A program made the translations under genes and the position numbers. A DNA stretch of 64,000 nucleotides from Rickettsiales bacterium (lineage in GTDB: Bacteria > Pseudomonadota > Alphaproteobacteria > Rickettsiales > JABIRX01): NCBI GenBank assembly GCA_965658435.1, contig CBFHSE010000002.1:239-64238 (forward strand), in the 5' to 3' direction. Under the pieces are notes generated by a model. It was not told where the DNA came from. It made no database searches and saw nothing but the letters and a program-made list of their open reading frames with translations. Shown here one piece after another: positions 2,725 through 48,180 of the stretch (position 1 is its first letter; each line of letters begins with the position of its first letter).

Positions 2725-3381
2725 TTAAAGAATTTTCTGACCTGATTTTTTCCAATCAGCCACAAAAACATCAAGACCTTTATCTGTTAATGGATGCTTA
2801 ATTAACTCCTTAACAATTTTTGGAGGAATTGTAGCAATATCAGCTCCAATTTTTGCACATTCTATTAAATGGATTGGGTTTCTAATAGAAGCAGCAAGTA
2901 TTTTAGTTTCTATATCCGGGTAATTATCATAAACATCCCTAATTTCAGAAATTAAATTCAAGCCATCAAGACCAATATCATCTAACCTACCTATAAAAGG
3001 AGAAATATAAGTAGCTCCAGCCTTAGCTGCCAACAAAGCTTGGCTAGCAGAAAAACATAAAGTGACATTAACAGTTGCCCCCTCACCTGTTAATTGTTTA
3101 CATAATTTTAAACCGTCCCAAGTTAAAGGTAATTTTATCGTTATATTATCAGCTATTTTTCTAAGCTCATAAGCCTCTTTTAACATTTGATCATATTCTG
3201 TAGCAGCAACTTCAGCACTTACTGAGCCAGAAATTACTTTACAAATTTCACATAAAATTTCTTTAAAATCTTTACCTTCCTTTGCAACTAATGAAGGGTT
3301 TGTAGTGACCCCATCAATTAAGCCGGTTTCTGATAATTCATTAATCTCTAAAATATTAGCTGTATCTATAAAAAATTGCAT
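2725..3381 (-). CDS. tal: Short-type transaldolase / fructose-6-phosphate aldolase family
   Basis: [15 protein letters not shown]...GVTTNPSL and ...TIKLP... are typical of 215-220 aa subfamily 3B transaldolases. Confidence 0.85.
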
Positions 3382-45258: not shown

Positions 45259-45450
45259 TAAACAAAAGTGTTTGTTAGTAAACATGCTCCCTTTCTTTAT
45301 TTAAACTAACAGAATAAAATAGGTACTGTCGGGCCTTTATCCATCGAGGGTAACGCGCACCGCAGCACTTTTTTAGCGTTAGCCTTTTAAAAGGGGTACG
45401 CGCTCACTTCAAGAAATAGGCATCAAGCCTTATCATTACTAGACCTATCA

Positions 45451-45492
45451 AGGCGCGTACTAATTAATTTTGGTACGCGCCTTTTTTATTTT
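45451..45492 (+). terminator. Rho-independent terminator
   Basis: AGGCGCGTAC-(12 nt loop)-GTACGCGCCT is a perfect 10-11 bp GC-rich stem, followed by TTTTTTATTTT. Confidence 0.65.
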
Positions 45493-45518: not shown

Positions 45519-46886
45519 GTGTGGATTCACATACCTTCAGAATTTTATCCCTCTGTAGCGGAGTCGGAGGAATCGAGCTTGGATTCAAGCTGGCTGTTCC
45601 CTCTGTTAGAACAGTCGGTTACATCGAGAACGAAGCCTTTGCGTGCAGTATCTTGGAAGCGCGCATGCAAGACAAAACCTTGGATGAAGCACCTATTTGG
45701 ACGGATCTTAAAACCTTCAACGGCAAACCTTGGCGTGGAAAAGTGGATTGCCTCACTGGAGGATATCCCTGCCAGCCATTTAGTGTCGCAGGAAAAAAAC
45801 TCGCTGAAAAAGACCCAAGACATCTCTGGCCAGAAATTAAACGACTCATCACAGAAATTGAACCACCCATCTGCTTCTTTGAAAATGTCGGCGGACATTT
45901 ACGATTGGGATTTGAGCAAGTCGCAAATGACCTATCAGAATTGGGTTACAAAATTAAGGCAGGCTTGTTTACAGCGCAGGAAGTCGGTGCTCCTCATAAA
46001 AGAGAAAGATTATTCATCTTGGCCTACAGTGATAGCGTCAGATCATCTATCAAATCCAACAGAAACTCTGGAGAGTTGGAAGAAGAGATCGGAGGCGAAG
46101 AAAAAACAAGGAATCAATCTTCACAAGCCACTAAGGATTGCTGTTCAGGAATTAGAAAATTGGCCAACTGTTGTGACATCGGATGCGGGCGTGGGAGCGA
46201 TCATATCCAAGAACGACACTTACAAAAAAACCTCAACAGGAAGTTTGAGGAAAATCAACAAGAATGGCAAAGACGGATCACTGGGACTTGCCAGAACAGT
46301 CAAGATGTGGCCGACAGTGAGAAGTTCATCTGCCAATGGGTCATGCCAAAACGAGATCAAGATGGGCAATCCAAAAGCGAGATTGGAAGTAGAAGTTCAG
46401 AACTGGCCAACACCAAGAGTGATGGAGCCGGGAAGCACGAGTCCGGGATATGGCAAGGGATTAAAAAACACTGCCATAAATTGGCGAACTCCCAATGCCT
46501 CGGATGGCGAGGGAGGAATAATGGAATGGAGAGATGGCAAAGCAGCAAAATTAAAGCTGAGGGATCATTCTGTTCATGCAGTGAAATCATGGGCAACACC
46601 AACAACGAGGGATTGGAAAGATGGCAGTGCGAAGAGCGAAAATGTTCCGACCAACTCCCTTCTTGGCCGCCAAGCCCCGCGAGCTATGAGCAGTGGGAAC
46701 GAATCCCAGATAACCTTAAACCCGCAATTCACAAATTGGCTGATGGGATGGCCAATCGGGTGGACGAAATTCGAGCCTCTGGAAATGGAGTGGTTCCGCT
46801 GGTTGCAGCTTATGCATGGAGAGTTCTTAGTGATGGAATGTATTTGGCTAAATGTAAAACAGAATCAAAAGAATCATGAAGGATAA
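45519..46886 (+). CDS. Overlapping +1-frame ORF (frame B) with six W-P/A/R-T repeats and an LMGWPIGWT motif
   Basis: 455 codons open in a frame offset by +1 from the C5-MTase. GTG start lies 2 nt before the frame-A GTG. Repeats are SWPTVIASD (46020), NWPTVVTSD (46161), MWPTVRSS (46308), NWPTPRV (46404), NWRTPNASDGEGG (46482), SWATPTTRDWKDG (46590), followed by LNPQFTNWLMGWPIGWT (46716-46766). Whether it is translated is unknown. Confidence 0.4.
   Translation: MWIHIPSEFYPSVAESEESSLDSSWLFPLLEQSVTSRTKPLRAVSWKRACKTKPWMKHLFGRILKPSTANLGVEKWIASLEDIPASHLVSQEKNSLKKTQDISGQKLNDSSQKLNHPSASLKMSADIYDWDLSKSQMTYQNWVTKLRQACLQRRKSVLLIKEKDYSSWPTVIASDHLSNPTETLESWKKRSEAKKKQGINLHKPLRIAVQELENWPTVVTSDAGVGAIISKNDTYKKTSTGSLRKINKNGKDGSLGLARTVKMWPTVRSSSANGSCQNEIKMGNPKARLEVEVQNWPTPRVMEPGSTSPGYGKGLKNTAINWRTPNASDGEGGIMEWRDGKAAKLKLRDHSVHAVKSWATPTTRDWKDGSAKSENVPTNSLLGRQAPRAMSSGNESQITLNPQFTNWLMGWPIGWTKFEPLEMEWFRWLQLMHGEFLVMECIWLNVKQNQKNHEG
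45521..46879 (+). CDS. DNA (cytosine-5)-methyltransferase, frame A
   Basis: Motif I LCSGVGG (45551), IV GGYPCQPFS (45758), VI FFENV (45875), VIII APHKRERLFI (45989), and the motif X region ADGMANRVDEIRASGNGVVP (46739-46798). The ~230 aa between VIII and X look non-globular. The ORF opens at a TTG at 45470 inside the terminator hairpin, so GTG at 45521 is preferred. The stop overlaps the next ATG. Confidence 0.7.
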   Translation: MDSHTFRILSLCSGVGGIELGFKLAVPSVRTVGYIENEAFACSILEARMQDKTLDEAPIWTDLKTFNGKPWRGKVDCLTGGYPCQPFSVAGKKLAEKDPRHLWPEIKRLITEIEPPICFFENVGGHLRLGFEQVANDLSELGYKIKAGLFTAQEVGAPHKRERLFILAYSDSVRSSIKSNRNSGELEEEIGGEEKTRNQSSQATKDCCSGIRKLANCCDIGCGRGSDHIQERHLQKNLNRKFEENQQEWQRRITGTCQNSQDVADSEKFICQWVMPKRDQDGQSKSEIGSRSSELANTKSDGAGKHESGIWQGIKKHCHKLANSQCLGWRGRNNGMERWQSSKIKAEGSFCSCSEIMGNTNNEGLERWQCEERKCSDQLPSWPPSPASYEQWERIPDNLKPAIHKLADGMANRVDEIRASGNGVVPLVAAYAWRVLSDGMYLAKCKTESKES

Positions 46887-48180
46887 TTTTTTGCCAAAAA
46901 TGGCAGACCATATTGAGATGAAGTCAGTTGAGGAGTTAATTCCATACTCCAAAAATGCTAGAACTCACAGCGAGAATCAAGTGGTGCAAATTGCCAATAG
47001 CATTATTGAATTTGGATTTACCAACCCAGTTTTAATTGATGGAGATAAAGGAATAATTGCCGGCCATGGAAGATTAATGGCAGCTAAAAAACTAAATTTA
47101 TCTCAAGTTCCAGTTGTTATTCTTGATCATTTAAGCGAAGCACAAAAGCGCGCTTATATTATAGCTGATAACAAATTAGCAGAAAATGCTGGCTGGGATG
47201 AAGAAATTTTAGCAAATGAACTCCATGATCTGAAAGAAGAAAATTTTGATTTAGATCTAATCGGCTTTGAAGATCAGGAATTAGAACGATTATTTACCAA
47301 CCTCTATGAATCAGACGAAAATGAGGAAGAGGAAAATTTACCAGAAATTGAAGAAAAGCCAATCTCAAAAGCCGGTGATATTTGGTTGCTTGGTGATCAC
47401 AAATTAATTTGTGGTGATTCATGCAAATTAGAAACTTACCAAGCCCTTCTTACCAATGAGCTAGCCGATATGACCTTCACCGATCCACCTTACAATGTGG
47501 ATTATGGCAACACAATGAAGGATAATTTAATTGGCAAAAAGAACGCTAAAACTGGCAAGGAATATAAAAACGCATCAGGGCAAAGAACAATTTTAAATGA
47601 TAATCTTGGTGATGATTTCCCTAAATTTCTTTTTGATTGTTGCTCAAATATTTTGGCACGTACAAAGGGAGCTTGTTATATTTGTATGAGTAGCTCAGAG
47701 CTTCATAATTTACAAAAAGCATTTATTGATGCTGGTGGTAAATGGTCAACTTTTATCGTCTGGGCAAAAAATCATTTCACTCTTGGTAGAAGTGATTACC
47801 AAAGACAATATGAGCCAATACTTTATGGCTGGAAAGAAAAGAACGATCATTATTGGTGTGGTGACAGAAATCAATCTGATGTTTGGTATTTTAACAAACC
47901 AAATAAGAGCGAGCTTCACCCAACAATGAAGCCTGTAGAACTCGTTAAAAAAGCTATTTTAAATTCATCTAAAACTGATGATATTATTCTCGATCCCTTT
48001 GGTGGATCTGGCTCAACTTTAATTGCAGCCGAGCAGTTAAAAAGAAGATGCAGAATGATTGAATTAGATCCGAAATATGTGGATGTTATAATTAAAAGAT
48101 GGCAAAATTTAACCGGTAAAAAAGCAATAAATTCGATTAGTGAAAAAAGCTTTGATGAAATTTTAAATGACAATGAGTAA
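46876..48180 (+). CDS. ParB-like nuclease domain fused to a beta-class N6-adenine/N4-cytosine DNA methyltransferase
   Basis: ParB N-domain (NARTHSENQV...NPVLID...IIAGHGRLMAA), motif IV TDPPYNV, and later motif I DPFGGSGSTLIAAEQL (order IV then I, i.e. beta class). Confidence 0.9.
   Translation: MKDNFLPKMADHIEMKSVEELIPYSKNARTHSENQVVQIANSIIEFGFTNPVLIDGDKGIIAGHGRLMAAKKLNLSQVPVVILDHLSEAQKRAYIIADNKLAENAGWDEEILANELHDLKEENFDLDLIGFEDQELERLFTNLYESDENEEEENLPEIEEKPISKAGDIWLLGDHKLICGDSCKLETYQALLTNELADMTFTDPPYNVDYGNTMKDNLIGKKNAKTGKEYKNASGQRTILNDNLGDDFPKFLFDCCSNILARTKGACYICMSSSELHNLQKAFIDAGGKWSTFIVWAKNHFTLGRSDYQRQYEPILYGWKEKNDHYWCGDRNQSDVWYFNKPNKSELHPTMKPVELVKKAILNSSKTDDIILDPFGGSGSTLIAAEQLKRRCRMIELDPKYVDVIIKRWQNLTGKKAINSISEKSFDEILNDNE

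Follow-up and report, generated by a model that had tools for sequence, protein, structure and literature searches.

A stretch of 64,000 nucleotides from a Rickettsiales bacterium (contig CBFHSE010000002.1 of assembly GCA_965658435.1; the window in what follows) carries, between positions 45519 and 46886, a locus in which the motifs of a cytosine-C5 DNA methylase are distributed over two almost co-extensive open reading frames (ORFs) of the same strand, named frame A and frame B, the latter being A+1. As judged by comparison with related loci, both frames are kept open by selection, both starts are conserved and short segments are doubly coded. The best explanation found for this arrangement is that twin starts give rise to one full-length chain from each frame and that the two chains assemble into one methylase, a reading to which a probability of about 0.55 can be given. 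As far as can be told, the finding is real, widespread and undescribed.

All features located below lie on the plus strand unless otherwise stated. ORF A (45521..46879, 452 codons from its GTG) opens with a catalytic region, continues as a stop-free spacer and ends in a C-terminal module that includes motif X. Frame A is devoid of stops over 471 codons, the ORF opening at TTG 45470 and closing with the TGA at 46877-46879, and GTG 45521 is its plausible start. The TTG is an unlikely one, because a hairpin resembling an intrinsic terminator occupies 45450..45483 (14-pair stem with 7 GC pairs, followed by a T-rich tail) and marks the 5' limit of the unit. ORF B (45519..46886, 455 codons) comprises an N-terminal pentapeptide, a spacer, a series of W-x-T repeats, an element like motif IX and a tail; this frame is free of stops over 458 codons, with GTG 45519 as its first codon and its stop at 46884-46886. 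The coordinates given in an earlier note, made from the letters of this DNA alone (both ORFs, the methylase motifs, six repeats, LNPQFTNWLMGWPIGWT, GNGVVP and the ATGA overlap with the next gene), all hold on recheck.

Openness, selection and starts in the two frames

The absence of stops was assessed by permuting synonymous codons 5000 times with the amino-acid sequence and the codon composition held fixed. In the N region of the window locus frame B has no stop, against 4.35 expected (permutation minimum 1), and in the centre frame A has none, against 12.9 expected (permutation minimum 4). The third frame is not depleted, with 13 stops against 12.4 expected and 19 against 15.7. The G+C content of the locus is about 45%; under a model of mononucleotide composition an open frame of 455 codons has a probability of 1.4e-12, and the rough chance estimate of the earlier note, about 1e-10, was of the right order. 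The double openness is far beyond chance or composition. The minus strand, as the same note remarked, is also rather poor in stops (ORFs of 117, 83 and 82 amino acids); the third plus-strand frame bears its expected load. Two of those minus-strand ORFs, of 117 and 83 amino acids, lie over the catalytic region (45545-45898) and are most simply a side effect of the purging of TAA, TAG and TGA from two plus-strand frames.

For the comparative analysis, 170 related loci were collected from viral contigs and genomes, mostly alphaproteobacterial, Micavibrio and Rickettsiales metagenome-assembled genomes. The frame layout was scored on the 164 loci in which the catalytic and the repeat regions were both detected, and stops were counted on 143 scorable loci. 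The repeat region is in the +1 frame relative to the catalytic region in 163/164 loci, the sole exception (L136) being due to mispairing with a distant second copy, and in 151/164 the part with motif X has returned to the frame of the catalytic region (A/+1/A layout). A scorable C-terminal match was present in 155 of the 164 loci, all but 4 of which share one and the same frame arrangement, and no locus among the 164 has all its parts in one frame. As regards stops, frame B contains 13 in the N region where 324 are expected, and frame A contains 49 in the centre where 687 are expected; the corresponding values for the third frame are 908 against 1006 in the N region and 1328 against 1201 in the centre. 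Frame A is open across the centre in 135/143 loci. The openness of homologous loci, a check proposed in the earlier note, is therefore borne out: both frames are open in 123/143 loci, with the third frame at its expected load.

The A/+1 layout is also found in cultured phages from four host phyla, namely Paenibacillus phage Tadhana, Bacteroides phage BS-TP4, Klebsiella virus KpV2811 and Burkholderia phage BcepC6B, as well as in prophages of 52/5426 complete E. coli genomes. When the centre of frame B was used as query, 4269 cluster representatives at 50% identity were retrieved. Proteins of the frame A type gave more than 6590 matches, named DNA cytosine methyltransferase wherever the source names one, and those of the frame B type gave 919 full-length matches, hypothetical wherever the source names one; as the earlier note stated, translations of both kinds exist as annotated proteins. 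Among the matches listed, homologues of the frame B type reach down to 27-35% identity at about 96-99% coverage.

Which frame is selected at the protein level, and where, was read from the distribution of mismatches over the three codon positions, for which 38 independent pairs of sequences with 70-95% identity were compared; the first position of frame A (A1) is the wobble position of frame B. In the catalytic region (45537..46013), whose bases form the spacer of frame B, the mismatch is 0.096, 0.054 and 0.204 at A1, A2 and A3, which corresponds to selection on frame A. In the centre the values are 0.300, 0.123 and 0.106, and frame B is the selected one. Over the approximately 70 nucleotides that end with the codons for GWT, all positions are suppressed (0.119, 0.041 and 0.072), with the pattern of frame B, and after GWT the pattern is again that of frame A (0.125, 0.089 and 0.203). 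Both switches are sharp: that from A to B falls 0-15 nucleotides past the F codon of the motif RERLF, and that from B to A lies at the end of GWT (46766). The anatomy described in the earlier note, with motifs I, IV, VI and VIII in frame A, the repeats and the motif IX-like element in B and motif X in A, is the path that the patterns in the 38 pairs follow. Two pairs of phages gave no clean codon-position signals, KpV2811 and BcepC6B being too divergent and Tadhana and Xenia too similar.

The first junction, J1 (46016..46030), is read I-L-A-Y-S in frame A, at the end of the motif VIII strand, and S-W-P-T-V in frame B. On the same bases, the Ala codon of frame A (GCN) is synonymously variable and the TGG (Trp) of frame B is nearly invariant. 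Translated over the catalytic region, frame A has an amino-acid identity of 0.61, frame B one of 0.40 and the third frame one of 0.36; since the conservation of frame B barely differs from that of the third frame, its stretch there is a spacer, and the possibility that its 165 N-terminal residues form a real protein was rejected. On the strength of these patterns, each frame is under protein-level selection only in its own segments, the rest being spacer over the functional part of its partner, and double coding is confined to some 50-100 nucleotides near 46664-46766 and to a few bases at 46016-46030. Genuine dual coding, one of the explanations offered in the earlier note, is supported in a qualified sense: both frames are kept open and their starts conserved, but most of each frame is spacer.

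The two starts are contained in the hexamer GTGTGG (45519..45524), in which the GTG of frame B (45519-45521) is followed by TGG (Trp) and the GTG of frame A occupies 45521-45523. In all 69 non-redundant loci a frame B start (ATG, GTG or TTG) adjoins the conserved TGG or stands one codon off it, and in 68/69 the frame A start lies between -10 and +2 nucleotides of this TGG. Three start layouts occur among the relatives: DTG-TGG, ATG-NNA-TGG and ATGCATGACCTGG. Codons 2-6 of frame B (45522..45536) read W-I-H-I-P, in agreement with the family pattern W-[LI]-[YH]-hydrophobic-P, which is conserved as amino acids: the information per codon position follows the periodicity of frame B (1.04/1.89/0.19, 0.68/1.37/1.01, 0.29/1.89/0.03 and 2/2/0.09 bits). 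The pentapeptide is kept at any distance from motif I, and P-P-[ED] often comes after it; the peptide could serve as a docking peptide, as a stability signal or through an effect of the nascent chain on translation. A further shift, from B to A just after the pentapeptide (a three-shift model), was rejected as unparsimonious, with no slippery site to effect it. In the P2-like prophage of E. coli, where the gene occupies 1312235-1313137 of NZ_CM143892.1 (locus L176, positions 1379-2281), and in Burkholderia phage BcepC6B, frame B starts inside A, and the frame A codons for E-R-S (GAA AGG AGY) place AAGGAG or GGAG 8 nucleotides upstream of the first ATG of frame B. In Paenibacillus phage Tadhana (L171, 1192-1212), GGGAGG is found 12 nucleotides before the first frame B ATG (third codon past the B stop). 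A conserved start of its own for frame B and purifying selection on both frames, segment by segment, are features of same-strand overlapping gene pairs of the overprinting type, and both are present here.

Departures from the usual layout are of several kinds. One clade (L014, L015, L017, L119, L120 and L127) has lost the openness of the frame A spacer, where 4-14 stops occur, while its frame A N-terminal region, its frame B and its frame A C-terminal module are intact. In frame A of these loci the sequence TGA-GGG-TGT-GGC-ATG, that is, GAGG and then ATG, is found 27-28 codons before WPPGP, which suggests that the A spacer merely connects and that a separate start can replace it in this clade. 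Of natural single-frame relatives, only rare and heterogeneous indel hybrids were found (5 of the best 150 cluster representatives and 5 of the first 120 matches), and these were rejected as evidence for a fused ancestor or norm. Three metagenomic hybrids from two lineages (P0024, P0103 and P0113) switch from A to B exactly at the A-run after motif IV; hybrids at this run are probably homopolymer errors or mutations. Finally, in L029 and L030, which are identical in sequence, the frame B region contains, at about 3200-3260, a tract of (AC)n that is translated as THTHTHT. Past the tract, frame A holds motif IX and the third frame holds the C-terminal module, and removal of one AC unit would restore the usual layout. 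This tract could be a phase-variable switch or an error in repeat length.

Catalytic region, repeats and C-terminal module

The N-terminal part of frame A is that of an ordinary C5 methylase. It holds motif I (FxGxG, binding of S-adenosylmethionine) at 45545-45571, motif IV (PCQ, with the catalytic Cys) at 45758-45784, motif VI (ENV) at 45878-45889 and motif VIII (QxRxR) at 45977-46027. When both translations were scanned, as the earlier note had proposed, PF00145 matched frame A alone, over profile positions 1-209 (E 1.2e-37), and so did TIGR00675 (106.2 bits against a cut-off of 100.65). These matches are restricted to the first 250-270 residues, and frame B gave no match in Pfam or NCBIfam. 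In PHROGs, phrog_363 matches frame A over residues 18-461. The AlphaFold2 (AF2) model of frame A has a predicted local distance difference test (pLDDT) score of 78-96 for residues 1-173, 22-36 for residues 174-382 and 79-90 for residues 412-442. Its best Foldseek matches are M.HhaI (E 3e-12) and M.HaeIII, and the 173 N-terminal residues adopt in the model a fold like the large domain of M.HhaI, with a strand at residues 162-169 that corresponds to the motif VIII strand at J1.

From 46031 to 46663 frame A is a spacer, with the low pLDDT of 22-36 and without selection in its own frame. The same bases are occupied in frame B by the repeat region (46020..46715), made up of six W-x-T-x4-[DES] modules that begin at 46020, 46161, 46308, 46404, 46482 and 46590. 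The number of W-x-T modules varies from 0 to 8 across the relatives, and among close relatives variation in the repeats is concentrated at the wobble position of frame B (0.62, as opposed to 0.14 and 0.11). One inserted pair of W-P-T-P modules sets apart the two E. coli loci L179 and L180. The repeat region is the putative target-recognition part, and its variable modules probably set methylation specificity, with a bearing on the escape of phages from restriction and on the reading of methylomes. No nuclease domain was found in frame B in Pfam, NCBIfam or PHROGs, and a nucleotide search of phage genomes yielded only a short match, in Ralstonia phage phiRSP.

The repeats are followed in frame B by the motif IX-like element LNPQFTNWLMGWPIGWT (46716..46766), which is doubly coded with PAIHKLADGMANRVD of frame A and at whose 3' end lies the second junction, J2. 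Its family form is LNPxFxxWLMGWPxGWT, with a frame B identity of 0.9-1.0 at N, P, F, M, G, W, P and W. In an hhalign comparison of frame B with M.HhaI, the sole match is to motif IX (residues 271-294, 13 residues in register).

The C-terminal module of frame A (46664..46879) runs from WPPSP through a conserved W to LKPAIHKLADGMANRVDEIRASGNGVVPLVAAYAW and includes the putative motif X, GNGVVP, at 46781-46798. The motif [FWY][PA]PxP, represented in the window by WPPSP at 46664, is present in 68/86 non-redundant loci in many synonymous spellings, whereas what these bases encode in frame B is hypervariable. The invariant residues of frame A are P383, P384, W392, P401, G409, R413, R418 and G421-N-G, the last as seen in 83 homologues, and the first four precede the motif IX overlap. 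The motif X region is helical in the model (pLDDT 79-90), and the Pfam match, which ends at profile position 209, stops short of GNGVVP. The module begins about 100 nucleotides upstream of J2 and overlaps motif IX of frame B; therefore, no single chain that switches frame at J2 can hold both.

Beyond J2, the frame B tail (46767..46886) overlies motif X of frame A. It is unconserved as a protein of its own frame, its stops are weakly depleted, and in other lineages frame B ends 6-11 codons past W-T. A long helix is predicted for tail residues 422-454 (pLDDT 73-88) despite this absence of conservation as B protein, and probably reflects mere helix propensity.

Two chains or one

In structures of M.HhaI, the large domain consists of motifs I-VIII and X, and the small domain of the target-recognition domain (TRD) and motif IX. 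The two frames map onto these two structural domains, because A has motifs I-VIII and X and B has the repeats and the motif IX-like element. In the proposed mechanism, one ribosome-binding region would serve two start codons placed 2 nucleotides apart (GTGTGG). Initiation at 45521 would yield the frame A chain, with motifs I-VIII, a disordered spacer of about 210 residues and a C-terminal module of about 70 residues with motif X; initiation at 45519 would yield the frame B chain, with its short N-terminal peptide, a spacer of about 160 residues, the W-x-T repeats and the motif IX-like helix. The spacer of each chain would be the functional sequence of its partner read out of frame, on which selection would only keep stops out, and the two chains would join non-covalently into the active enzyme, as in split methylases. 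Frame B would provide target recognition in the complex with A; by sequence, the motif sets of the two are complementary. The short stretch of true double coding (some 50-100 nucleotides) may lock in the two-frame layout. Extended to all relatives, the proposal is that interleaved co-extensive frames with twin starts are the obligatory form of the gene in a very large family of phage C5 methylases that spans several phyla, and that the enzyme works as a two-chain complex, a claim for which the odds are about even.

Several points weigh against two chains. That both are made and bind each other is inferred. The likeness of frame B to a TRD is weak, with no match in Pfam, NCBIfam or PDB sequence searches, and so is the assignment of motif IX (hhalign E 0.076). 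Modelled alone from an alignment of 72 sequences, frame B folds poorly (mean pLDDT 44). The conserved N-terminal pentapeptide is left unexplained by a two-chain model. The clade with stops in the A spacer can express the A C-terminal module without reading through the spacer, which weakens the argument that openness is needed for this. Moreover, about 370 residues of spacer per enzyme are costly, and a pair of indels would give a single-frame gene, yet none has been fixed.

The same selected segments could be joined in a single chain by double programmed recoding, with a +1 shift after motif VIII (about 46016-46030) and a -1 shift after GWT (about 46766), to give I-VIII, TRD, IX and X in one polypeptide, the unshifted full-length products being by-products. 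The earlier note had mentioned two recoding events producing a chimeric methylase, and the selection path does fit this: protein-level selection runs exactly A, B, A, with sharp switches and the motifs in canonical order. Further, the clade whose A spacer carries 4-14 stops looks like a classic frameshift gene in which motif X is still selected, and rare in-frame metagenomic hybrids (P0068 and P0241) indicate that a fused reading is encodable. The junctions, however, bear no signal for it. In none of 139 loci does frame B have a slippery heptamer of the form X_XXY_YYZ near J2, homopolymers at J1 and J2 do not exceed 5, the sequence after J2 has no conserved RNA structure (consensus fold of -0.43 kcal/mol, no covarying pair) and the base to be skipped for a +1 shift at J1 is fully variable. 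Recoding would also leave unexplained the openness of frame B upstream of J1, together with its start and N-terminal peptide, as well as the openness of frame A across the centre in 135/143 loci. A chimera would lose the WPPxP module selected in frame A and, at J1, either the A residues ILA(Y/H) or the Trp of frame B, and two shifts in series would multiply two inefficiencies. When chimeric (A-B-A) and centre-deleted constructs were scanned, the chimera gave no longer PF00145 match. From the sequence evidence, with a B start and pentapeptide of its own, an A C-terminal module that begins early and no junction signals, a simple A-B-A chimera is not the best fit, and double recoding, although the main rival, is regarded as the weaker reading and an unlikely one.

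It is distinctly improbable that frame A alone is the methylase and that frame B is an unrelated overprinted gene, for instance for a DNA-binding or anti-defence protein, its likeness to motif IX being coincidental. The absence of sequence matches for frame B in Pfam, NCBIfam and PDB is what would be expected in that case, frame A has both methylase ends and matches phrog_363 over most of its length (18-461), and out-of-frame ORFs in phage methylase genes are known from the ShiLan element (PMC11855218). Frame A would then, however, be without a recognisable target-recognition domain, since nothing folded or conserved lies between motif VIII and the C-terminal module, and frame B ends in the 13-residue in-register match to motif IX, its only hhalign match on M.HhaI. 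Besides, frame B is present family-wide across four host phyla, not patchily as a selfish insertion would be, and the number of its modules varies as in multispecific TRDs.

Phase variation, in which indels in repeats would switch the frame and both frames would be kept open so that all variants give a long product, is very improbable. Runs of seven A are present in the window at 45793-45799 and 46224-46230, the hybrids P0024, P0103 and P0113 switch at the A-run after motif IV, and L029/L030 have their (AC)n tract. That A-run is not conserved, though, at least 6 As being found in 24/130 loci, and a switch there would remove motifs VI and VIII. All but 4 of the 155 scorable loci are in one arrangement and show no mixture of states, and the hybrids are few (5 of the best 150 cluster representatives) and heterogeneous, which is what errors or mutations would produce. 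An artefact, either the compensating assembly indels considered in the earlier note or a decaying pseudogene with a composition-driven open frame, is effectively refuted in spite of the stop-poor minus strand and of the window being a single sequence, as the layout recurs in 151/164 independent loci, in cultured phages and in complete E. coli chromosomes, with purifying selection in each segment and a third frame at its expected stop load. The remaining probability falls to mixtures, such as two chains with some recoding, and to mechanisms not thought of.

Comparison with known systems, neighbouring genes and database records

Motifs I, IV, VI and VIII and the putative motif X follow one another along the DNA as in canonical C5 methylases such as M.HhaI and M.HaeIII. 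The locus departs from them in that the region of the TRD and motif IX is selected only in the +1 frame, and the single-chain layout of the family is not found. M.AquI is a naturally split C5 methylase, with alpha and beta subunits encoded by separate genes and the split located in the variable region (motifs I-VIII and IX-X), and complementation between engineered fragments is known for M.HhaI and M.BspRI. The likeness to M.AquI lies in a C5 methylase made of two polypeptides with complementary motifs, which here is a prediction from sequence; unlike in M.AquI, the ORFs are co-extensive and overlapping, and motif X stays with the catalytic chain, so that the second one is left with only the TRD and motif IX. 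The Rz/Rz1 spanins of phage lambda are encoded in a same-strand +1 overlap, each with its own start, and their products cooperate, the short Rz1 lying wholly inside Rz. In Rz/Rz1 both frames are functional on the same bases, whereas here the ORFs span the whole locus from starts 2 nucleotides apart, with alternating segments and only about 50-100 doubly coded nucleotides. By analogy, the closest counterpart in function would be split methylases such as M.AquI, and in the manner of coding an embedded pair such as Rz/Rz1.

Genes with programmed frameshifts (prfB with a +1 shift, dnaX with a -1 shift and the phage tail chaperone G/GT) resemble the locus in that selection switches frame within the gene. 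They differ from it in several respects: here there is neither a conserved slippery site nor a stimulatory structure, the zero frame is open in most loci, not one but two switches would have to occur, and there is an open alternative frame with a start upstream of the first of them. The nearest published parallel found is ShiLan, a patchy out-of-frame insertion of homing type in a mycobacteriophage methylase, which encodes an HNH nuclease and has its start inside the insertion (PMC11855218). The likeness is that a stretch of a phage methylase gene is free of stops but disordered in the host frame, while another frame codes for a folded protein. In the present family, by contrast, the second frame is found in every related locus examined, extends over the full gene length from a twin start, shows no HNH or other nuclease domain and appears to be the recognition part of the methylase itself. 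No description of the layout was found in the literature searchable in full text, with paywalled work and the notes in REBASE outside the search.

If both frames are translated, a same-strand overlap of about 1.4 kb would have been kept by selection in thousands of lineages, and the locus would be an unusually clear case in the field of long overlapping genes of bacteria and phages, which are still debated. One enzyme would then come from two frames of one stretch of DNA, an architecture new to description; two frameshifts without a known signal would be equally surprising. The presence of the same layout in prophages of E. coli makes experimental testing feasible now.

As for its surroundings, the locus is set in a phage or prophage, with replication genes on one side and terminase, portal and tail genes on the other. 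The gene immediately downstream (46876..48180) encodes a ParB N-terminal domain joined to an N6/N4 methylase (PF02195 and PF01555), and its ATG is merged with the frame A stop as ATGA. Frame B ends 7 nucleotides beyond frame A. A 4-nucleotide overlap of the downstream start with the frame A stop is found in 60/148 relatives. The phage thus carries two methylase genes in tandem, and in E. coli the second methylase of L179 and L180 is instead located directly upstream and, in L180, is of the MT-A70 type.

Gene callers choose either frame almost arbitrarily, and databases consequently hold many protein sequences that are half junk. In the record of Paenibacillus phage Tadhana two overlapping coding sequences (CDS) are annotated, and the records of related Paenibacillus phages disagree with one another, giving two methylase CDS, a methylase and a hypothetical protein, or a single CDS. 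In E. coli cS100a (L180, NZ_CM176582.1, 587-1756), the Prokaryotic Genome Annotation Pipeline splits an intact frame A ORF of 390 codons into two pseudogene fragments, labelled as missing the C-terminus and the N-terminus, a split that is likely due to the spacer having no homologue.

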